Assembly (NCBI GenBank): GCA_000165345.1
Contig: CM000434.1
Coordinates: forward strand, 256,001 to 320,000
Length of the DNA: 64,000 nucleotides
Direction of reading: 5' to 3'
In this document: positions 1 through 43,842 of the stretch, piece by piece
How positions within the stretch are numbered: position 1 is the first letter of the stretch
Layout: each line of letters opens with the position of its first letter
The notes under the pieces: generated by a model
Seen by the model: the letters and a program-made list of their open reading frames with translations, nothing else
Told to the model about the DNA's origin: nothing
The model's database searches: none
Translations under genes and position numbers: made by a program

Positions 1-633
1 GATTTACCAGAGGATTTAATATCTAGGCCATTACCATTATCTCATGAATGGATTGTATGGGAACAATTAAATGTGGAGACAAGAAAAGATTTAGACTACT
101 CAAATGCAACAAAGCCAGTTGCCAGGTTTTCATCTGTTCAACAGTTTTGGTGGCTATGGCATAATATTCCTCAGCCTTCTGAGTTATTAAAGGGAAAAAG
201 AATGATTAGAGAATCATCAGATGGTTCAAAGAGTGTAGTAGACGCAGTGATTTTATTTAAAGAAGGTATCCAACCAATGTGGGAAGATCCAATGAATGCA
301 ACTGGTGGTCATATTCACTTTAGAGCTTGGCAATCATCAGTTGTTCCTGGAGAATTAGATACAATGTGGAATAATTTGGTTTTGGCTGTGATAGGAGGAA
401 GTTTGGAGAACTCTTCTATAGTTAATGGAATTAGATTGGTTGATAAACTTGGAGGTAATAAGGGTAATATTAGAGTTGAGATATGGTTTTCAGATTTTTC
501 AAATCAATCAGCCCATCAAGCACTTCTTAAGGAAATTGAGACTTTAATGAGTAGCTTATTGGATGGTACATCTTGTGAGCCTCCTCATTTTGAAGTTAAA
601 TCGCATTCAAAGTCAAAACCCGATGCAAATTAA
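1..633 (+). CDS. eIF4E: Translation initiation factor eIF4E (cap-binding protein), 5'-truncated by the window edge. Frame 1 is open from nt 1, and the listed ORF (73..633) is its in-frame continuation.
   Basis: Tryptophan-rich cap-binding signature: ...SHEWIVWEQ..., FWWLWHN and GIQPMWEDPMNATGGHIHFRAW resemble the eIF4E W-motifs (HPLQ..W.FWF; G.EPMWED..N..GG.W). Stop at 631-633. Confidence 0.8.
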   Translation, partial: DLPEDLISRPLPLSHEWIVWEQLNVETRKDLDYSNATKPVARFSSVQQFWWLWHNIPQPSELLKGKRMIRESSDGSKSVVDAVILFKEGIQPMWEDPMNATGGHIHFRAWQSSVVPGELDTMWNNLVLAVIGGSLENSSIVNGIRLVDKLGGNKGNIRVEIWFSDFSNQSAHQALLKEIETLMSSLLDGTSCEPPHFEVKSHSKSKPDAN

Positions 634-924
634 AAAGAAACAACAAATGTTGGGGATAATTTATTTTGAGAGATTTATAAGTTTTAAAAAATCTTAGTTT
701 GATTGAAATTCTCTCTTATCTTTTTCATTATTAATTGACAGAAAATTCAGAATTAGAATATATTTTTTGACTTATTAATAGAGGAATATAAGTAGTCTAA
801 AGGATTTATCTTATTATTTCAGACTCTGTATAAGAAAAACTACTACATTTTAATATTACGATTTCTTTATATCAGAAGTTAAGATTGCTAATATCTACTA
901 ACTTAGTTTAGTTATATCTATTGA

Positions 925-2622
925 TTAACTTGTTTGCTTCTTTGACTTCTCTCTCTGAATCCATTCTCTCCCCAAAAGTGGTTTTTCTGGGATATTACTT
1001 GACAGAGCCCTTCTTAGTACATGATTCTTTTCTCTGTTTGCAATTTCTCTACTAATAAGAGTGGAAATCAGGTTAACATCGTCATTACTTATCCGACTAA
1101 AAAGTTTTTTCAAGAAAGTTATCTTCTTTTTTGTTTTTGAAGTATTAAACTCTTTAATTAACAGCGATAGACCTTTCTTTGTCATTATTTTTCTAGCTCT
1201 TCTTTTACTTGAACCACTTCTTCTACTTGTTTTAATGGGATCTGTCTGTGTTGCAACAGAAACATACTTATACGAAGTATTAGTTTCCTGAGGTTTTGTC
1301 AAATTCTCTACTTGAGTGGAAACTTCTTGGATTTCTGGTTTCTCAAAAGTGATTGCAATCTCTTCATCTTTTGTATTGCTACCAGTAGAACTTGTGGTTG
1401 AACCTGATTTAGCACTAGAAGAGGAGGCCTTACTATTATCATCTGGGAACTCAACATTATTTTCGAAATCTGAAGAGAACTCTGACTCTTCTGCTTGCAT
1501 TTCAGATTTGAGTTTCTTGCTTTCACCATCCTCTTCCTCACTCTGAGAAGAATTCTGAGGTTTCAATTCAGTCTCATCATTTGTTTGTGAGCTATAACTA
1601 GATTCTGAATTTGTATTAGTTTTAGCTTCTGTATCAGTGGTGTTTTTTTCTTCCTCGGATGCAGAATCCACTGTTGGAAGATTATATGTGGAAGATTTTA
1701 GTAGTAATTGAAGTTCAACTTCATCCGATGAAGCTTCAGAAGTTCCTGGTAACAATAATCCCGAACCTGAATTTGATGTTGAGGCTAAGTTTGATGCTGA
1801 GGCTGAACCTGCAGGAGGTTTTGATCCAGAATCTGAATCTGGTCCTACAGAAGAGAGTTCAGGATGGATTTCCTCTTTATAGCCTCTGAGACCTCTTTGA
1901 GATGTTGAAGAGTATGACTCTTGAGAATCTTGGCTTAAAGTTTTAAGTTCGCTTTCCTCGTGATCTAACTTAATTTCTTCATCTGCTTGGTTTGAAGAGG
2001 AAGCATGATTAAATGTCGAGGTTTGAACTGAACTTGAGAATGAATCTGGAGCAGATTCCAAAGTTGATGCTGAAGATGATACTGCTGCAGATGAATCAGA
2101 ACTAGAATTTGAACTTGAACCTGAACTAGAGGTTGAAGTTGAGACCTGTTCCTGATTAATTGGAGTGGAAATAGTTTTTAAATGTAAATCTGAATCTTTA
2201 TTCTCAGATTCTGACTTTTGTTCCTCCTTCTTTTCATTAGTATTGATATCGTTATCTAATCTTGGAATTTCTTCTAAATCTAATGCTGGTGGTGCTTCCT
2301 CCATAAGTTTAATTGTGGAATGTTTTTCTGAAGATTTTTCAGGATCATCCTTATTATTCAATTCTTTTTCTTGAATAAAAGAATCAAAATCGCTACTATG
2401 TAAAAGCCCTATAGCTTCTGAAGAAGCACCATCATCTAAGCTTTCTGGCTTTTTGCTTGAGTCCTCACTATCTTGTGTATTTTTAACTTCTGTTAGATTG
2501 CTTTCACTCTCTTTTGCATCTGATGCATAAAGTAATTCAAAGTTTAAAAACAGTAAAATTACTATAATAAACAAGAATATAACAGAAATCTTTTTAAATC
2601 TGTGTAATCTTAAAAGCTCCAT
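925..2622 (-). CDS. Secreted acidic, Ser/Glu/Asp-rich low-complexity protein. N-terminal signal peptide and a basic C-terminal tail.
   Basis: 565-aa uninterrupted ORF. Hydrophobic N-terminus (ISVIFLFIIVILLFLNFELLYA). Long S/E/D-rich tracts. C-terminal KRRARK-type basic stretch. No recognisable catalytic domain. Confidence 0.6.
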   Translation of the reverse strand: MELLRLHRFKKISVIFLFIIVILLFLNFELLYASDAKESESNLTEVKNTQDSEDSSKKPESLDDGASSEAIGLLHSSDFDSFIQEKELNNKDDPEKSSEKHSTIKLMEEAPPALDLEEIPRLDNDINTNEKKEEQKSESENKDSDLHLKTISTPINQEQVSTSTSSSGSSSNSSSDSSAAVSSSASTLESAPDSFSSSVQTSTFNHASSSNQADEEIKLDHEESELKTLSQDSQESYSSTSQRGLRGYKEEIHPELSSVGPDSDSGSKPPAGSASASNLASTSNSGSGLLLPGTSEASSDEVELQLLLKSSTYNLPTVDSASEEEKNTTDTEAKTNTNSESSYSSQTNDETELKPQNSSQSEEEDGESKKLKSEMQAEESEFSSDFENNVEFPDDNSKASSSSAKSGSTTSSTGSNTKDEEIAITFEKPEIQEVSTQVENLTKPQETNTSYKYVSVATQTDPIKTSRRSGSSKRRARKIMTKKGLSLLIKEFNTSKTKKKITFLKKLFSRISNDDVNLISTLISREIANREKNHVLRRALSSNIPEKPLLGREWIQREKSKKQTS

Positions 2623-3814
2623 TTTTCTTAATTACGAATTTTCTGGTATCTGCTGCCTAAATAATATAATATAATTTTAAAATATAACCTTTTGTTTCCT
2701 TTATATTGATAAATCGGTTCTTATATAAAACTTTTAATATTACTATTTAAGAATCAATTACTTTCATATACTTTTAATCCACAATCCAAAATAATACTAT
2801 CGTTTCTCCTGCACTATTTTCAAGTAAAAAACTTATTTTCAACTTACTTAATTTTTAGATCGTAATTTATAGCCGCCACCCTACTGATCTATTTGACACC
2901 TTATTTGAAATCTCCCTTTAACTTTACAATTTCCCTAAGCTTTTAAAATATAACAATAGTTTTTTCAGAATTTACTCTTTGAAATGAATATTAAATTGCC
3001 ATTTCATTTTTTTTCATTTCTATCTATTTTTACTAAATAATATACGTCATTTTTGCTAGCCCCCCCCCACACCTTATTCTTTAAAGTCAAAATTTATTTA
3101 AAAAAAAACTGTAAGCAAAAATTTGGTAGGTATTAAACATTAGCCTTTTATTTCCGGCTAGCTTATAGATAAATTACAGATAAATAGAAGACTTATCAGA
3201 CTTACAAAGGTTAACTAATTTCTTATTATTGCTGATACCCTAATCATCTACAATAACTAGGGTGCAATAAGAAAATTGTTTAAATAAATTTTTAAAAATG
3301 CATGTATATCAGAACTCTATCTCTCTTTTGAATCTTTATAATCAATAATAAATGGACAACTATTTTTTGTGTATGCACCGTAAATTCACCATGTTTTTTT
3401 CCTCTATAATAATTTTTAATAAATTACATGTGGGCAAGGCGGTAAATTGCTAGATTAACACGTAATAGTTGACTTTCAATGAATTAAATTATGAAGAATA
3501 AATAAATTAATGGGTAAATATAGGTAGAATATGAATTTTAACTTAAAAATTAAAGTATTTATACATTTATATTTAAAAATATGAATAAATTTATTTAAAT
3601 GCTATGTTGTTAATGAATATTAAATTTATTAGCAATAAAGGGATAAATTTGTAATGGAAAATTTCAAAAATAATATTGGCAATATGCAACAATTCTCTTA
3701 TTAAATTATTCCTAATAAAGTTAGCGCAATTAATTTCAAATTTATGAACCAATATGGAGCATGAATAAAGTTTGTATATTTTTCTTTTAAAAAAAGTTGT
3801 AGTAAATCATTCAA

Positions 3815-5686: not shown

Positions 5687-6494
5687 ACAGCATTTTTTTT
5701 ATACTATATGTATATATATGTATGCATATAATCCAACCTGAAACTATTTGGTTACCAACTCGTCTATATAAAAAAAGAGAAAATTGAAGCTCATATTGAT
5801 TTAAACAGAGTTAAATATAATTTTTCAATGCCAAACACTTGATAAATATGACTATATTTAATATATTAATATTATTCAGCACAAGAATATGATTTTTAAG
5901 TTCCGTTCTCACATAAGATTGATTCAGCAGTCCTTTTACTGCATATTTGATCTTAATCTGTGTGATCTATTCTAATGAATCATCTTATCTCCCTTTTTAT
6001 TAAGTACTATTACTTAATGAATAGAACTTCAATTCTGTTCACTAAGAGGGAGATATTACTTTTATTTATTTATGCCTGCCATTAAACTAGGTTTTAATTT
6101 CCTTATATTGCAAACCCCTTAAATGCCTCTGTTTCTTATCTAGACACTTATACTAAGGATTCTCGGTAGGCTTTTCTTAAGAAAAAAGACGAAAAGAAAG
6201 GGAATGAAGTCACTGTGAAAAGTAATTGCAACAAAAACTTCTAATTTAGCTCCAAGTAGCAAATTGAAGCTAAAATTACGAGACGATGGTTCCCGCCAAA
6301 ACACGTAATTAAATGTTAAAAATGACATTCGATATTAATTTACCTCGAATCCGATTTAATTCTAATATTTTTTTTATTGAAGTTCTGAGAATCATTATCA
6401 CTACCGTTTTCGGAATTTGAATTCATAAAAGTTGATAATACTACACTTTGGAAACAATTAAATATATTTATATAAGATGAAAATTGAGTAACCA

Positions 6495-10433: not shown

Positions 10434-11408
<975 letters not shown>

Positions 11409-22643: not shown

Positions 22644-24470
22644 CTAGAGTCTATCAAAAGTAGAGTATAAACCAAGCAGACCATATGTCTGCAAACAGAC
22701 AACTTTTAGAATTTCTTCATTATTCTGAAATTTATGGAAATTGTTTTCTCCAAGTAAAAGTCGTTTTACCTGGATAAAACATTGCTTTGGTCTGTCCAAA
22801 GGATTATTATTTCTATTTCTGACAATAACTTCATTAGTCTTTAATATTTTGTCGTTTTCTCCGAATGAAAAATGCTTTACAAGCAAGAAATTGAAGAAAA
22901 CATTATCTCTGTAAAACATTTGTTTATTAGTATCATTAATTTCCTTCTGAATGACAATTTTTTGCACTTGTAAATCATCTTCTGAATAGAAGATGATCAT
23001 AGTTACAATTTCCAATTTTAAATTGAAAATTGGACTAGTCAGTTTTGGATCTGATTTATTAATAATTAAATTTAACATAAATCTGGTAAAGTCTGATTTA
23101 TAGTAGAGTCTCCTTTCTTGAATGTAATCAAATTTGGCAAAATATTGTTCAAAAACGTATTTCATTGAAGCAAAGTTAATGTAATTTCCAAAAAATGAAT
23201 GTAATTTGGAAATTCCATTTTTACCATTGATTATTTCAACAACTTTCTCGAGATTATCCTCCAAAGTTGAATAAACAACCAAATATTCATAAATTGCCAA
23301 GTATAAAAGCTTTGTTTTTGTGGGAGTAAAATAACTCTTCAATTCTTTATTTTCTGTTTGAATGAACCTATATGTTAAAGTTTCTGAAATATTGTACAAG
23401 GAAATTCCAGAAATTTCATTTTTAATTTTTAAGTTAATTTGATTTTCACTTCGAGTTGACCTAAGGGACTTTGATCTTGAACGAGAACTGGTTATTTCTG
23501 AATCACTTACTTCCTTAAGACCACGCATCTCCACCTTTTTGTTGTTAATTTCCTTTTCTGTTTCTCTTAATGCTTCCTTGAGCTCAGAATTAGAAAGATT
23601 TCGTTCCTCTATAGAATCATAGCTTATAATAGACTCACTTTCATTTTTTAAGGCTTCCAATATTTCATCAAAAATTGAAGCTTTATCATTTATTTCAATT
23701 TTGAAGCTGATATTGTCATCTTTAGATTGAACAATTTCTGTGATATTAAATCCGTCCAATTTTGAAGAATTATTATTTTCAAATAATTCTTCAAAGTTAT
23801 TCTGGATTTCAGCTTCTAATTCCTTAAATTTACTTTTCTTTTTTCCACAGCAAGATGATTTTTTTTCTTCAGTGTTATCCACTAATTTTTCTAATACTTC
23901 TAAATCTGTCCCATCAGGTTTTTGAAGAGGAATCTCACAGTTTTCTGAGGCTTTATTTGCATCTCCCTGATCAACATCAAATAAGAACTCTGATTCAGAT
24001 TTTACTTCACTTCTTTGCATCAGTCTTCTGCTGGATGGCTGCTGCTGGAATTCGTAGCTTCCAGATTTTAATTCAATACAATTATCTTTTAAAAATGCTA
24101 TATCATTGACTTTACTTTTTATGATATAATCAATAACTTCATTCTTACAAAAAAATAGCATCTTTTCTTTGTTACCCAATAAATCACCTACCAATTCTTC
24201 AATTTTCTCGTTTGCCATGATTACAATGAAGTTGAAAGTTGAGTTTTCGATAGGTAAAGGCTCGTGACCAGATTTTTCTGTTCCATTGGACACACGTTCT
24301 GTTAGTGAGACAGCTATCTTCTCATAATCATAGAAATCTTCGCCAGATATTAAACTTTTCTTGGAAATTACATTATTAATCTTATGTGCAGTAACATTTG
24401 TAAGTGATAAACTAGAAAGTACACTAAATAATAAACCCAAAATGAAAAATTTGAATACCTTAAATCTCAT
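22644..24470 (-). CDS. Secreted hypothetical protein (608 aa).
   Basis: Signal peptide MRFKVFKFFILGLLFSVLSSLSLTNVTA. Acidic/K-rich middle and hydrophobic-patterned C-terminal half. No recognisable family. Confidence 0.6.
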   Translation of the reverse strand: MRFKVFKFFILGLLFSVLSSLSLTNVTAHKINNVISKKSLISGEDFYDYEKIAVSLTERVSNGTEKSGHEPLPIENSTFNFIVIMANEKIEELVGDLLGNKEKMLFFCKNEVIDYIIKSKVNDIAFLKDNCIELKSGSYEFQQQPSSRRLMQRSEVKSESEFLFDVDQGDANKASENCEIPLQKPDGTDLEVLEKLVDNTEEKKSSCCGKKKSKFKELEAEIQNNFEELFENNNSSKLDGFNITEIVQSKDDNISFKIEINDKASIFDEILEALKNESESIISYDSIEERNLSNSELKEALRETEKEINNKKVEMRGLKEVSDSEITSSRSRSKSLRSTRSENQINLKIKNEISGISLYNISETLTYRFIQTENKELKSYFTPTKTKLLYLAIYEYLVVYSTLEDNLEKVVEIINGKNGISKLHSFFGNYINFASMKYVFEQYFAKFDYIQERRLYYKSDFTRFMLNLIINKSDPKLTSPIFNLKLEIVTMIIFYSEDDLQVQKIVIQKEINDTNKQMFYRDNVFFNFLLVKHFSFGENDKILKTNEVIVRNRNNNPLDRPKQCFIQVKRLLLGENNFHKFQNNEEILKVVCLQTYGLLGLYSTFDRL

Positions 24471-40403: not shown

Positions 40404-40574
40404 TAGTGTTGTTGAAAAGCTCATTTTAAAGTAATAAATATAGTGAATTAGAATACATGTATTGTCTGCATACTCAGACATTAAAATATATAGTCTATAA
40501 ATAATTAGTTATAATAAATATAAGTATTAATTTTTTTTTCTAATTATTTTTTCAATAGTGTGGGAAAAAACAAG

Positions 40575-40583
40575 TTGGCGCCT
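40575..40583 (+). promoter_or_regulatory. E2F-like site TTGGCGCCT, 65-73 nt upstream of the J-domain gene ATG.
   Basis: Exact 9-mer. GC-rich island in AT-rich intergenic DNA. The same 9-mer occurs at the same distance and orientation upstream of the next two genes. Confidence 0.55.
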
Positions 40584-40647
40584 CAAGTTAATATTAATCT
40601 TTGAACTTTAAAGCAATTTTGAGTGAATATTTTATTGAAAATTCTTT

Positions 40648-41391
40648 ATGGTGAAAGATATTCGTCTTTATGAAATAATTGGCGTATCTCCAAATGCTGG
40701 TGCTGCAGAAATAAAGAAAGAGTATAGGCTTAGGGCACTTGCTTTACATCCAGATAAAAATCAGAATGACGAAAAAAGCAAGGAAAGGTTCCAAGAATTA
40801 CAAAAAGCATATGAAATATTGAGAAATGAAGAATCTCGCAAGCTATATGATGAGACTGGCATAATTGAGGGTGAGGAAGGGAAAAAGTTTGATGACATTA
40901 TTAATTATTTTAAACAGTTTACCAAAAAAATATCTGAGAAAGATATTCAAGAATATAAAGAACGATACCGTGGGTCTGATGATGAATGGGAAGATTTGTC
41001 AAATTTCTACCTAAGATTTAATGGAAATTGCAAACTGCTGCTTGAATATATTCCCTTTTCCGAGCCAGAAGATATCAACTATTATGTGAGTATGATTGAA
41101 GATGCAATAAAAGATGGCAGACTTCCTCAAAAAAAAGAGTTTAAAGGATCAATTAAGGAGTTGCATGCCCAGGGAAAGAAATGGAAGGCAAAAATGAAGC
41201 GAGAGAAGTCTAAGCATTCAAGTAATATGGAAGATCTCGTTCAAGCGATCCAAAGCAGTTCTAAAAAAAGGATGGGAGGCTTTGCAAGTATTATTAGCAA
41301 GTTTAGTGACGATAGCTTTGAAGAAGTTGATGAAAGCAAGTTTCAAGAGATACAGGAAAATCTCTTGAAAAATAAAAAGAAAAAACGCTAG
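40648..41391 (+). CDS. J-domain protein (DNAJC9-like small DnaJ).
   Basis: N-terminal J domain: LYEIIGVSPNAGAAEIKKEYRLRALALHPDKNQNDEKSKERFQELQKAYEILRNEESRKLYDETG (HPD). Charged C-terminal tail with KKKKR. Confidence 0.8.
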   Translation: MVKDIRLYEIIGVSPNAGAAEIKKEYRLRALALHPDKNQNDEKSKERFQELQKAYEILRNEESRKLYDETGIIEGEEGKKFDDIINYFKQFTKKISEKDIQEYKERYRGSDDEWEDLSNFYLRFNGNCKLLLEYIPFSEPEDINYYVSMIEDAIKDGRLPQKKEFKGSIKELHAQGKKWKAKMKREKSKHSSNMEDLVQAIQSSSKKRMGGFASIISKFSDDSFEEVDESKFQEIQENLLKNKKKKR

Positions 41392-41415
41392 CCTAATTTT
41401 AATTTCAATATTCTT

Positions 41416-41424
41416 TTGGCGCCT
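41416..41424 (+). promoter_or_regulatory. E2F-like site TTTGGCGCCT, 72-80 nt upstream of the DPH5 ATG.
   Basis: Exact match to the TTTSGCGC E2F consensus half. Same 9-mer as at 40575 and 43132 (the latter on the minus strand). Confidence 0.55.
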
Positions 41425-41495
41425 AGTTTGAGTCAAAATTGATTAATTCGAATTGGAAAAAAAAATAATCCGGGTTATAATAAAAATTTACTACC

Positions 41496-42308
41496 ATGGT
41501 TTTGTATCTAATTGGAACAGGGCTAAATGATGAGAGGGACATGACTTTGGGTGGTATAGAACTTATGAAGGTAGCTGATAAGATATATTTAGAATCTTAT
41601 ACTTCTATTTTATCTCAGAGAGCAGATTTGATGAAATATACAGATGGGAAACCTCTTATAGAAGCAGACCGTAAAATGGTAGAGGAAAATTGCGATGAAA
41701 TTATTGAAGAGGCTAAAGACAAATCCATAGTGCTACTAGTAGTAGGGGACCCTTTTTGTGCAACCACTCATTCTGATTTGGTTTTAAGAGCTCATGAAAA
41801 AGATGTCAAGGTTGAAGTTAGACATAATGCAAGCATTATATCTGCTATCGGGTGTACTGGATTACAAGTTTACCGTTTTGGAGAAACAGTTTCGATTCCA
41901 TTTTTCGATGGAAGTTGGCAGCCTTCAAGCTTTTATGATAAAATCAAAGCTAACATTGAGAGAGGACTACATACCCTATGCCTACTTGATATAAAAGTTA
42001 AAGAGCAGACCATTGAAAATATGATGAGGAATAGACCAATTTTTGAGCCTCCTAGGTTCATGACAGTTAATCAAGCAATTTCCCAATTATTTATTCTAGA
42101 GGACAAACTTAAACAAAATGTTATATCACCTAATTCATTAGCAATAGGGGTTGCTAGAATTGGCTCAAGCGACCAAAAAATTGTGTCAGGTACATTAAGT
42201 GAGCTTTCTGACACTGATTTTGGAAATCCATTACATTCATTAGTAATTTGTCATCCTGATTTGCATTTGATTGAACAGCGTTTCTTTGAAATATATAGGA
42301 AAAAATAG
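41496..42308 (+). CDS. DPH5: Diphthine synthase (diphthamide biosynthesis methyltransferase DPH5).
   Basis: MVLYLIGTGLNDERDMTLGGIELMKVADKIYLESYTSIL matches the DPH5 N-terminus (MLYLIGLGL.DE.DIT..GLE....D.VYLE.YTS.L). 270 aa and a tetrapyrrole-methylase fold length. Confidence 0.9.
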   Translation: MVLYLIGTGLNDERDMTLGGIELMKVADKIYLESYTSILSQRADLMKYTDGKPLIEADRKMVEENCDEIIEEAKDKSIVLLVVGDPFCATTHSDLVLRAHEKDVKVEVRHNASIISAIGCTGLQVYRFGETVSIPFFDGSWQPSSFYDKIKANIERGLHTLCLLDIKVKEQTIENMMRNRPIFEPPRFMTVNQAISQLFILEDKLKQNVISPNSLAIGVARIGSSDQKIVSGTLSELSDTDFGNPLHSLVICHPDLHLIEQRFFEIYRKK

Positions 42309-42376
42309 TAAAAAATGATTAATAAATATAGATTAATTAATTTTCGTTCTAAATTATATTCGTTTTTTTATTTAGT

Positions 42377-43066
42377 CTATTCACAAGGTACAATCGCAAA
42401 TGAAATTATTGGCTTAAATGAACTTGGCAGAAATGTTTGTTCCATCTTTAATATACATTTATAATTTGCTCTTTTAAAAATTTCTAGAAAGCTTTCTTCT
42501 GTCCTAATAATACTTCCATCAATTGGATCTACCTCATCTTCATAAGAATCTGCATTGTCCTTAATGCATACAACTCGTTTAGTTCTGTTTGCACTAGTCT
42601 CATTGCAATTATCAAATGAATTTCTAATTCTTATAAGGAGATCTACAAACTCATCATCAGATAAGTACTGTAGTGCCCATTGGATCCAAATAAAATCATA
42701 TCTTCCATTGGCTGGATTAAAATCTTGGAGTTTTGAATGAATTAGCTCAATACAATCTGGGTTATTTTTTTTTGCAACAGTTAAATGTTTAAGTATCGGT
42801 TCATTCAAATCCATCTTCTTACAGTGTTTCATTAAATTCGGTGTTACACGACCAATTCCACACCCCGCATCTACTCCGTATTCAAAAAGTTCATCCTTTT
42901 TCATGCAAAGCCTTTTTTTTAACGTTTCGATAAAATATGTGCTATTGTCGATATCTATTTCGTGGATGTGTATAAATCCATCTAGCATGCCTTCGTTAGT
43001 TGAAGGTTGCTTCTCCCAAATCTCCTCAGAACGACAGAGGATTCTTCCATTATCTGTTTCCATCAT
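42377..43066 (-). CDS. Protein N-terminal (X-Pro-Lys) methyltransferase NTMT1/METTL11 family, SAM-dependent.
   Basis: GVDAGCGIGRVTPNLM (SAM motif I, as in NTMT1 DCGAGIGR.T..LL). Upstream of it, GMLDGFIHIHEIDIDNST.F (compare GMLGGY..IS..DI..S..FL). Confidence 0.8.
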   Translation of the reverse strand: MMETDNGRILCRSEEIWEKQPSTNEGMLDGFIHIHEIDIDNSTYFIETLKKRLCMKKDELFEYGVDAGCGIGRVTPNLMKHCKKMDLNEPILKHLTVAKKNNPDCIELIHSKLQDFNPANGRYDFIWIQWALQYLSDDEFVDLLIRIRNSFDNCNETSANRTKRVVCIKDNADSYEDEVDPIDGSIIRTEESFLEIFKRANYKCILKMEQTFLPSSFKPIISFAIVPCE

Positions 43067-43131
43067 TCAGCCTCTCTCTTTAAACCTAGTTTATTAATAT
43101 ATGAACTTGAATTTTAATAATATAAAACCTT

Positions 43132-43140
43132 AGGCGCCAA
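43132..43140 (-). promoter_or_regulatory. E2F-like site TTGGCGCCT on the minus strand, 66-74 nt upstream of the NTMT1 ATG.
   Basis: The plus strand reads AGGCGCCAA, whose reverse complement is TTGGCGCCT oriented toward the minus-strand gene. Confidence 0.55.
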
Positions 43141-43242
43141 CCACTAAATGTCAAACTTTACTCCATCAGCATAATAAGATTTGAATGACCACTTAATTTT
43201 GAAATACTCAATAGTTCCTATATTGTTAAAGAGAAAATTAAA

Positions 43243-43842
43243 CTATATTGAATTTGAGGTATTTAACGTTACCTTTGTTGTGAGTTCAGATGCTGAATTT
43301 ATTTCCAAACTTTCTGTTTTCGTATTTGTATATATTTTTAAAGTCATTTTATGATACTTCCTATTTCTTGTAAATACCAATGCAATAATGAATAATACGA
43401 TATGAAGTATTATTCCAATAATTATTTTTGTCTTGAGTGTAACACTTTTCAGCATTAGCCTATATTTATTCATTTGCTGAATTATTATTGTTTTCTCATT
43501 AATTGGTAAAGTTTCTTTTTTCACTAATATACAGCCATTCAAATTAATGAAAGCTAAAATTTTACAAGAATAATTAAGTGATATGCTCTCAATTAAGTTT
43601 TTTTCTTTCTCGCAGTTGGATTGTTTCATTATTTTAATGTAAATATAATTGCATTTATTATCACTATTTGAATCCCAAGAATATAAAGTTTTATTTGAAT
43701 TACTTAAGATTTTAATAGGGTAAACACACTTAAATCTCCCAATTGTACTAATTAAAACATTTCTGTTTAGTATAGTCTCAAAATTATTACTGCATTTTAT
43801 TTTATCCACCAATATTTCACTGCCTTGTTCCAAATTTAACAC
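43243..43842 (-). CDS. Possible small membrane protein (199 aa) with one C-terminal TM helix. Weak call.
   Basis: ORF with a hydrophobic stretch (IIIGIILHIVLFIIALVF). N/K/I-rich composition that could arise by chance in AT-rich DNA. Confidence 0.35.
   Translation of the reverse strand: MLNLEQGSEILVDKIKCSNNFETILNRNVLISTIGRFKCVYPIKILSNSNKTLYSWDSNSDNKCNYIYIKIMKQSNCEKEKNLIESISLNYSCKILAFINLNGCILVKKETLPINEKTIIIQQMNKYRLMLKSVTLKTKIIIGIILHIVLFIIALVFTRNRKYHKMTLKIYTNTKTESLEINSASELTTKVTLNTSNSI

Follow-up and report, generated by a model that had tools for sequence, protein, structure and literature searches.

Three identical copies of the 9-mer TTGGCGCCT lie upstream of three adjacent genes on chromosome 6 of Cryptosporidium parvum. 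They are probably (at about 0.78) separate copies of the generic Cryptosporidium E2F-type promoter element, each serving the gene immediately downstream. The sites are real, and of a kind already known. In the window, i.e., the whole 64-kb stretch of DNA that was analysed (30.1% GC), TTGGCGCCT has three exact matches, at 40575..40583 (+), 41416..41424 (+) and 43132..43140 (-). These copies are also the only GGCGCC hexamers of the window, and all of them are in non-coding DNA. The sequence-only reading of this stretch had given the same coordinates and the same distances to the start codons, all of which matched when we re-scanned the window. It had also judged three copies to be improbable by chance, and this was borne out by an expected count of 0.08 and by dinucleotide-preserving shuffles of the window, none of which (0/100) gave three copies. 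The 9-mer is however not GC-only as had been claimed: this is true of the 6-nt core, whereas the full word has three T.

The first site (gTTGGCGCCTc, 40575..40583, + strand) is found 65-73 nt upstream of the ATG of cgd6_1190 (40648..41391, +), which encodes a J-domain protein of the DNAJC9 type (247 aa; Pfam DnaJ and HTH_DNAJC9). It starts 172 nt past the stop codon of cgd6_1180, in a spacer of 244 nt. The second (cTTTTGGCGCCTa, 41416..41424, + strand) is 72-80 nt upstream of the ATG of cgd6_1200 (41496..42308, +), encoding the diphthine synthase DPH5 (270 aa; Pfam TP_methylase). It starts 25 nt past the stop codon of cgd6_1190, in a spacer of 104 nt. The third (gTTGGCGCCTa, 43132..43140, minus strand) is 66-74 nt upstream of the ATG of cgd6_1210 (42377..43066, -), encoding the N-terminal Xaa-Pro-Lys methyltransferase NTMT1 (229 aa; Pfam Methyltransf_PK). 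It starts 18 nt past the true stop codon of cgd6_1220, in a spacer of 91 nt. Relative to the start codons (at 40648 and 41496 on the plus strand, and at 43066 on the minus strand), the 9-mer thus spans -73..-65, -80..-72 and -74..-66, and the distance from the start of the core to the ATG is 71, 78 and 72 nt at sites 1, 2 and 3, respectively. As previously proposed, each copy is oriented toward its gene: the sense strand of the downstream gene reads TTGGCGCCT at all three sites.

The gene identifiers were fixed by mapping published qRT-PCR primers onto the window, at positions 40822 (cgd6_1190), 41705 and 41843 (cgd6_1200), and 42983 (cgd6_1210). The Pfam domains agree with the identities first proposed from the translations (J-domain, DPH5, NTMT1), and for DPH5 so do the names in the source annotation. 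The last exon of cgd6_1220 (43158..43217, -; ELLSISKLSGHSNLIMLME and the stop codon) is joined over a 55-nt intron (43218..43272). Its terminal peptide and stop codon (TAA or TGA) are kept in 10 species, and the annotation of this gene in C. meleagridis stops at the equivalent position. A TAG located 3 nt before site 3 was rejected as the stop codon of cgd6_1220, since the reading frames across species lead to the TAA 17 nt before the site. Nine neighbouring ORFs gave no Pfam match, and no E2F_TDP domain was found among the 24 of about 31 ORFs of the window that were scanned with Pfam.

An E2F-like upstream motif of C. parvum was reportedly described by Bankier (2003) and Mullapudi (2007). The published motif is W-SGCGCS-W (TGGCGCCA)(PMC12246861, PMC3734150), given as motif 3, 5'-[A/T][C/G]GCGC[G/C][A/T]-3' (TGGCGCCA), by Oberstaller 2013 (PMC3734150). 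All three sites read T-GGCGCC-T and fit this consensus, so that the 9-mer had rightly been called E2F-like. They share with the known motif their non-coding upstream location and even the chromosome of its first report: chromosome 6 (BX526834) is where the excess of the motif in non-coding DNA was first noticed, according to PMC3734150. They also belong to a family that is abundant in the window and shows no single expression pattern; we find no essential difference between them and the C. parvum motif. The over-representation of E2F/DP-type motifs upstream of Cryptosporidium genes, mentioned in the sequence-only reading, is indeed published: the motif is enriched upstream of the genes of 163 expression clusters out of 200 (2,379 genes), without a particular expression pattern (PMC3734150).

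The sites also resemble the canonical E2F/DP site, TTTSSCGC, known from the adenovirus E2 and DHFR promoters and from the E2F4-DP2-DNA structure (Zheng et al. 1999, cited in PMC3734150). Common to both are a palindromic CG-rich core, a one-sided run of T and a position near the gene start. Site 2 (TTTTGGCGCC) matches TTTSSCGC fully, and sites 1 and 3 read GTTGGCGCC. In animals and plants the canonical site marks cell-cycle genes under the control of pocket proteins of the Rb family, whereas Cryptosporidium has no Rb orthologues and carries the motif upstream of most genes, including housekeeping ones (PMC3734150). The literature lists two or three E2F and two DP subunits in C. parvum (E2F: cgd1_1570/cpbgf_1001560 and cgd6_1430; DP: cpbgf_7003650 and cpbgf_8001850)(PMC3734150, PMC12246861, bioRxiv 10.1101/2025.01.17.633476).

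From the similarity of the motifs we infer that E2F/DP is the factor binding the three sites. A winged-helix E2F/DP heterodimer would bind GGCGCC, the T-rich flank being on the sense strand, some 70-80 nt ahead of the start codon and probably near the transcription start. Once bound, it would keep the short spacer free of nucleosomes and permit initiation. The activating role of the sites and their position relative to the transcription start are putative. Sites 2 and 3 nearly abut the preceding stop codon on the same strand because the genome is so compact. They are so close to it that the 3' end of the upstream gene and the promoter of the downstream gene would overlap, or else the pair would be read through as a dicistron with an internal E2F site.

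The whole motif family shows the same association with promoters. We found 14 strict E2F-like hexamers (SGCGCS, GGCGGG/CCCGCC) in the window, 13 of them in non-coding DNA, which makes up 25% of the window. Half of the spacers bearing a promoter (10/20) contain such a hexamer, compared with one of the 10 convergent spacers. In a positional test on the 64-kb window, seven of 12 E2F-like sites were at 60-140 nt from an ATG, where 2.1 were expected (P ~0.002; P 0.008 with a null restricted to the site's own spacer). Apart from the three copies studied here, the non-coding sites of the window (ten) are of the GGCGGG/CCCGCC or GGCGCG type. Two observations were discarded. The GGCGC half-sites of a convergent spacer at 22.4 kb seemed to speak against the association with promoters, but one of them is inside a tRNA-Leu gene. 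The word TTTGAC/GTCAAA beside sites 2 and 3 is within what chance would give (2/13 sites, about one expected) and inconsistent in orientation.

We compared the orthologous loci (6.8 kb) of 11 Cryptosporidium species, in all of which synteny holds. The most conserved 8-nt block of each intergenic spacer contains the GCGC core, with a tie in the spacer upstream of the DnaJ gene. At site 1 the core is invariant (11/11 species) and TTGGCGCC ties as the most conserved 8-mer among 240 windows. At site 2, TTTGGCGC is the most conserved 8-mer of the spacer, and a site with a GCGC core is kept in eight of the 11 species compared, being absent in C. bovis, C. ryanae and C. muris. At site 3, TTGGCGCC ranks first among the 8-mers of the truly intergenic part, and the core is kept in C. 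parvum, C. hominis, C. meleagridis, chipmunk genotype I, C. ubiquitum, C. canis, C. felis and C. muris. All three genes have the T-rich flank on their sense strand, and most species retain it. This phylogenetic footprint supports purifying selection on the core. The conservation in sister species that had been suggested as a check is therefore observed: C. hominis and C. meleagridis keep the core, as do six species that are more distant, and C. muris does so in part. Exact identity of the 9-mer and fixed spacing, which had also been put forward, hold only within the parvum/hominis clade. Across species the core lies 44-103 nt from the ATG. C. canis and the Logan species have A as the ninth base, and site 2 of C. 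meleagridis reads GGCGCT. New here are the conservation across 11 species at three promoters, the local preference for 60-140 nt, and the placement 18-25 nt after a stop codon. A CHR-like TTTGAA found 17 nt after site 1 is kept in the closest species only.

The position of sites 2 and 3 brings in the possibility that an E2F-type site in a very short spacer (about 100 nt at most) acts on both flanking genes. For the upstream gene it would mark the 3' end, help to form it or be a boundary, and for the downstream gene it would be an internal promoter, with cgd6_1190-1200 and cgd6_1220-1210 as dicistrons. We regard this as unlikely, even if several observations fit it. Besides the 25 and 18 nt that separate these sites from the upstream stop codons, a tandem spacer of 120 nt (60288..60407) has an E2F-like site 42 nt past a stop codon, and three of the four tandem spacers of 130 nt or less in the window carry such a site. 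Seven of eight species have 19-33 nt between stop codon and core in the second spacer. Xiao et al. 2025 (bioRxiv 10.1101/2025.01.17.633476) also found the E2F motif inside polycistronic transcripts, in 160 of the 201 internal spacers. The two short spacers here (104 and 91 nt) resemble these in having same-strand neighbours about 100 nt apart and one motif, and the pairs are candidate polycistrons; the spacer of site 1, of 244 nt, is an ordinary one. Site 1 is indeed far from the upstream stop codon (172 nt). Moreover, E2F-like sites are common in divergent spacers, which have no 3' end, and rare in convergent spacers, where 3' ends abound, and few internal spacers are accessible in sporozoites (Xiao et al., bioRxiv 10.1101/2025.01.17.633476).

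A binding factor other than E2F/DP, e.g., an ApiAP2 or a zinc-finger protein recognising GGCGCC, is a rather unlikely alternative for these conserved cis-elements. The GTGTGGGAAA box (40558..40567, +), 7 nt upstream of site 1 (17 nt from start to start), suggests that other factors act there: this GTGTGGG box is a possible companion element of site 1, its AGTGTGGG equalling the E2F core in conservation (0.90 identity to C. parvum over the 10 other species). Yet, the core and the T flank fit the E2F consensus exactly (site 2 is TTTGGCGC). Cryptosporidium alone among apicomplexan genera is reported to retain E2F/DP, and it is the only one to combine this with an excess of the motif (PMC3734150, PMC12246861). 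In sporozoite ATAC-seq peaks the E2F motif is the top, dominant one, with no AP2 motif (Xiao 2025, bioRxiv 10.1101/2025.01.17.633476).

The three GGCGCC-type sites are consecutive among the 13 ordered sites of the window, for which the post-hoc chance is about 0.04. The sub-type may thus have a meaning of its own. It might be that sites with a GCGC core (TTGGCGCC) and sites of the CCGCC type (TTCCCGCC) are two classes of E2F site, bound by different E2F/DP pairs. The stop-proximal GCGC-core sites would then punctuate transcription, and the run of three would be a small chromosomal domain under one such factor. We think this quite improbable; the points in its favour are the adjacency of the sites, the stability of the core type and the stop-proximal position.

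A dedicated module of chaperone function, eEF2 diphthamide synthesis and protein N-terminal methylation, marked by the identical 9-mer, was the interpretation first given to these sites, and we now consider it very unlikely. The copies are identical, adjacent, at similar distances (core start at -71 to -78) and in a common sense orientation, and they include every GGCGCC-type site of the window. Furthermore, eight species have GCGC-core sites in all three spacers, never switched there to GGCGGG. However, the genes are not co-expressed. In the qRT-PCR time course of Mauzy 2012 (Table S1; medians of four replicates at seven time points, in noisy data with replicates up to ~30-fold apart), the Pearson correlations were 0.29 (DnaJ-DPH5), -0.59 (DnaJ-NTMT1) and -0.18 (DPH5-NTMT1), and at 2 h cgd6_1190 was undetected while cgd6_1210 was at its peak. 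Among the matches listed in the accessible part of the Oberstaller cluster table, cgd6_1210 belongs to cluster 96 and cgd6_1220 to cluster 102, and there is no entry for cgd6_1190 or cgd6_1200. Within the window the exact 9-mer is specific to the three genes; its ninth base, however, is not conserved, and the core variant and the spacing also vary between species. The E2F family, for its part, is found upstream of most genes without a characteristic profile (PMC3734150), including half of the promoter-bearing spacers of the window. The genes have, hence, neither the common expression profile nor the member-specific cis-element of a regulon. The best reading of the identity beyond the 8-nt consensus, the adjacency and the near-equal distances is that they are coincidental, the motif family being abundant. 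That the sites are three functionless GC-rich words is refuted: their length is only 9 nt and they were looked for post hoc, but besides the shuffles and the non-coding location, the footprint keeps the core across up to 11 species in alignments that are otherwise 40-57% identical.

These results do not add a regulon joining chaperone function, diphthamide synthesis and N-terminal methylation. As copies of the E2F-type promoter element, the three sites provide a clean and well-conserved example of a motif already known in Cryptosporidium, of modest practical value. They are short, defined and footprinted targets for reporter mutagenesis and for E2F/DP binding assays comparing TTGGCGCCT with TTGGATCCT and TTCCCGCC. 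If there were indeed two classes of site, a GCGC-core site close to a stop codon would be where the upstream transcript ends or has its boundary and where the downstream one begins. The spacers of 91-104 nt would make good test cases for how adjacent transcription units are kept apart, or are not, in a very compact genome.

Exact-match search of the 64-kb window found TTGGCGCCT exactly three times, upstream of the DnaJ gene (site 1, 40575..40583, plus strand), of DPH5 (site 2, 41416..41424, plus strand) and of NTMT1 (site 3, 43132..43140, minus strand). For this window of 30.1% G+C, dinucleotide-preserving shuffles give an expectation of 0.08 copies, and none of 100 reached three. The only three GGCGCC hexamers of the window are those of the three sites. 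The downstream open reading frames start at 40648 (plus), 41496 (plus) and 43066 (minus), placing the 9-mers at -73..-65, -80..-72 and -74..-66 from the ATG. The distances and sense-strand orientation proposed in the sequence-only reading thus match at all three genes; its description of the 9-mer as GC-only holds for the 6-nt core, not for the whole word.

The gene identities proposed there agree with Pfam and the names used by the sources: a J-domain protein that also has a DNAJC9 HTH domain, a member of the TP_methylase family (named diphthine synthase, DPH5), and a methyltransferase of NTMT1 type. By mapping published qRT-PCR primers onto the window (Mauzy et al. 2012, PMC3305300, Table S2), we identified these genes as cgd6_1190, cgd6_1200 and cgd6_1210, respectively, and the 2,408-aa protein upstream of the DnaJ gene as cgd6_1180. 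The small gene upstream of NTMT1 was assigned to cgd6_1220 from gene order only (the listed primers have no exact match). An identical DPH5 protein is encoded by C. parvum chromosome 6 records (BX526834.1, CP029785.1 and others).

We compared the syntenic locus (large protein, DnaJ, DPH5, NTMT1, small gene, CLP1/NOL9-like) of C. parvum with those of C. hominis, C. meleagridis, chipmunk genotype I, C. ubiquitum, C. canis, C. felis, C. ryanae, C. bovis and C. muris, and with a partial Logan assembly contig covering DnaJ-DPH5-NTMT1 only. The GCGC core of site 1 is unchanged in all 11 species, and TTGGCGCC is the joint-best conserved 8-mer among the 240 windows of its spacer (identity to C. parvum of 0.90 vs. 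a spacer mean of 0.58). The best-conserved 8-mer is TTTGGCGC in the spacer of site 2, and again TTGGCGCC within the truly intergenic part of that of site 3. Such conservation shows the three sites to be under selection and excludes chance. Most species also retain the T-rich sense-strand flank, which supports the proposed orientation.

The conservation expected from the sequence-only reading therefore stands for the core, but not for any of the features that seemed to set the three copies apart. C. canis and the Logan species have A as the ninth base and so match the published TGGCGCCA. At site 2, C. meleagridis and chipmunk genotype I share the core GGCGCT, C. canis has AGCGCC and C. felis has GGCGCG; the syntenic locus of C. 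bovis, C. ryanae and C. muris lacks the site. The distance from core to ATG varies between 44 and 103 nt, so the spacing is not fixed.

Two other observations concern this locus. A GTGTGGGAAA box (40558..40567, plus strand) starts 17 nt before site 1, leaving a gap of 7 nt. Over the 11 species its conservation equals that of the E2F core (AGTGTGGG identity of 0.90), and it is G-richer in C. bovis and C. ryanae (GTGTGAGGGG / ATGTGGGGG). Of the 13 E2F-like sites in the window, two to three have a GTGTGG or TGTGGG word no more than 35 nt away (post hoc, nominal P 0.01-0.06). The box may represent an AP2 or G-box-like companion of the E2F-type site. The Logan contig (L012, SRR31861040_481569, 1..2724; 2.7 kb) has 50% G+C, its DPH5 is 86% identical to that of C. 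parvum, and its two spacers retain TTGGCGCCAA and TTGGGCGCCAAG. It appears to come from a Cryptosporidium-like organism of much higher G+C.

The word belongs to a known family. The C. parvum E2F motif has been described as 5'-[A/T][C/G]GCGC[G/C][A/T]-3' / TGGCGCCA, and chromosome 6 itself is where non-coding DNA was initially seen to be enriched in it (PMC3734150, PMC12246861). Non-coding DNA makes up 25% of the window and holds 13 of its 14 strict E2F-like hexamers (SGCGCS plus GGCGGG/CCCGCC). At least one hexamer occurs in 10 of 20 promoter-containing spacers and in 1 of 10 convergent ones. Seven of 12 E2F-like sites lie 60-140 nt from an ATG vs. 2.1 expected under random placement (P ~0.002, or 0.008 with shuffling inside each site's own spacer, for a range picked post hoc). 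The promoter-proximal preference is therefore a property of the whole family and not of the three genes.

CCCGCC/GGCGGG forms a second E2F-like class, with nine of ten copies non-coding (4476, 6292, 13605, 19743, 24562, 27433, 27525, 60329 and 61703) and T or A flanking most of them (e.g., ttCCCGCCtaa). The spacer of the copy at 6292 is apparently convergent. The copy at 13605 falls in 2.5 kb of DNA lacking ORFs of at least 100 aa (11409..13920; longest ORF at most 88 aa, no Rfam match), in which an intron-rich gene, or a non-coding one, may lie. This gap separates the cgd6_1090 DnaJ gene from gp60, the standard Cryptosporidium subtyping locus (GP40-15 glycoprotein, cgd6_1080; 10434..11408, minus strand; Pfam GP40, E 4e-114). 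A tRNA-Leu(CAG) gene (22456..22530, plus strand) occupies the 315-nt convergent spacer between ORFs 19875..22328 and 22644..24470; of the GGCGC half-sites in this spacer, one falls inside the gene, which accounts for it, and the rest adjoin the gene.

We conclude that the finding is real: these are three independently conserved copies of an E2F-type promoter element that is generic and has been described before. Cryptosporidium, which lacks an Rb orthologue, reportedly retains E2F/DP alone among apicomplexan genera. The E2F motif leads in sporozoite ATAC-seq peaks (bioRxiv 10.1101/2025.01.17.633476). From motif identity and published genome-wide data we infer that E2F/DP would bind the three sites and, close to the TSS, would open chromatin and activate transcription.

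Could the sites have a further meaning? Expression gives no support to the co-regulated module proposed for the three genes: in the noisy time course of Mauzy et al. (18S-normalised, four replicates, seven time points), median profiles have Pearson r of 0.29 (DnaJ-DPH5), -0.59 (DnaJ-NTMT1) and -0.18 (DPH5-NTMT1), and at 2 h NTMT1 peaks while the DnaJ transcript is undetected. These authors report expression to be uncorrelated with chromosomal location (PMC3305300). Among the rows listed from the Oberstaller clustering (PMC3734150), cgd6_1210 is in cluster 96, and cgd6_1190 and cgd6_1200 are absent. A specific meaning of the GGCGCC subtype is a weak, post hoc suggestion, drawn from the three GGCGCC sites being consecutive among the 13 non-coding E2F-like sites (chance ~0.04).

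Each of the three sites lies between head-to-tail genes. In a spacer of 244 nt, site 1 starts 172 nt past the cgd6_1180 stop, and site 2 starts 25 nt past the DnaJ stop codon in one of 104 nt. For site 3, the values of 18 nt and 91 nt follow from the corrected last exon of cgd6_1220 (43158..43217, minus strand; 19 codons), which encodes ELLSISKLSGHSNLIMLME and a stop after a 55-nt intron (43218..43272, minus strand; GTAACG...ATATAG). In ten species both the peptide and the stop that ends it (TAA or TGA) are conserved. The exon is missing from several C. parvum gene calls, which end at 43243, and present in the C. meleagridis annotation. The apparently fixed distance is thus partly forced, because in two of the three cases only ~100 nt can house a promoter element. 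Site 3 is separated from the cgd6_1220 stop by 17 nt (43141..43157, minus strand) that read AGTTTGACATTTAGTGG; within them AAGTTTGACA is kept from C. parvum to C. muris, with C. felis, C. bovis and C. ryanae as exceptions. The other E2F-like sites show no enrichment of TTTGAC nearby.

The position of the stop-proximal sites 2 and 3 fits the internal spacers of C. parvum polycistronic transcripts, of which 160 of 201 reportedly carry the E2F motif (bioRxiv 10.1101/2025.01.17.633476). It allows a boundary or dual-use role, at low probability. Beyond the generic promoter element, what remains most interesting is this architecture, in which two of the sites begin only 18-25 nt past the preceding stop codon.
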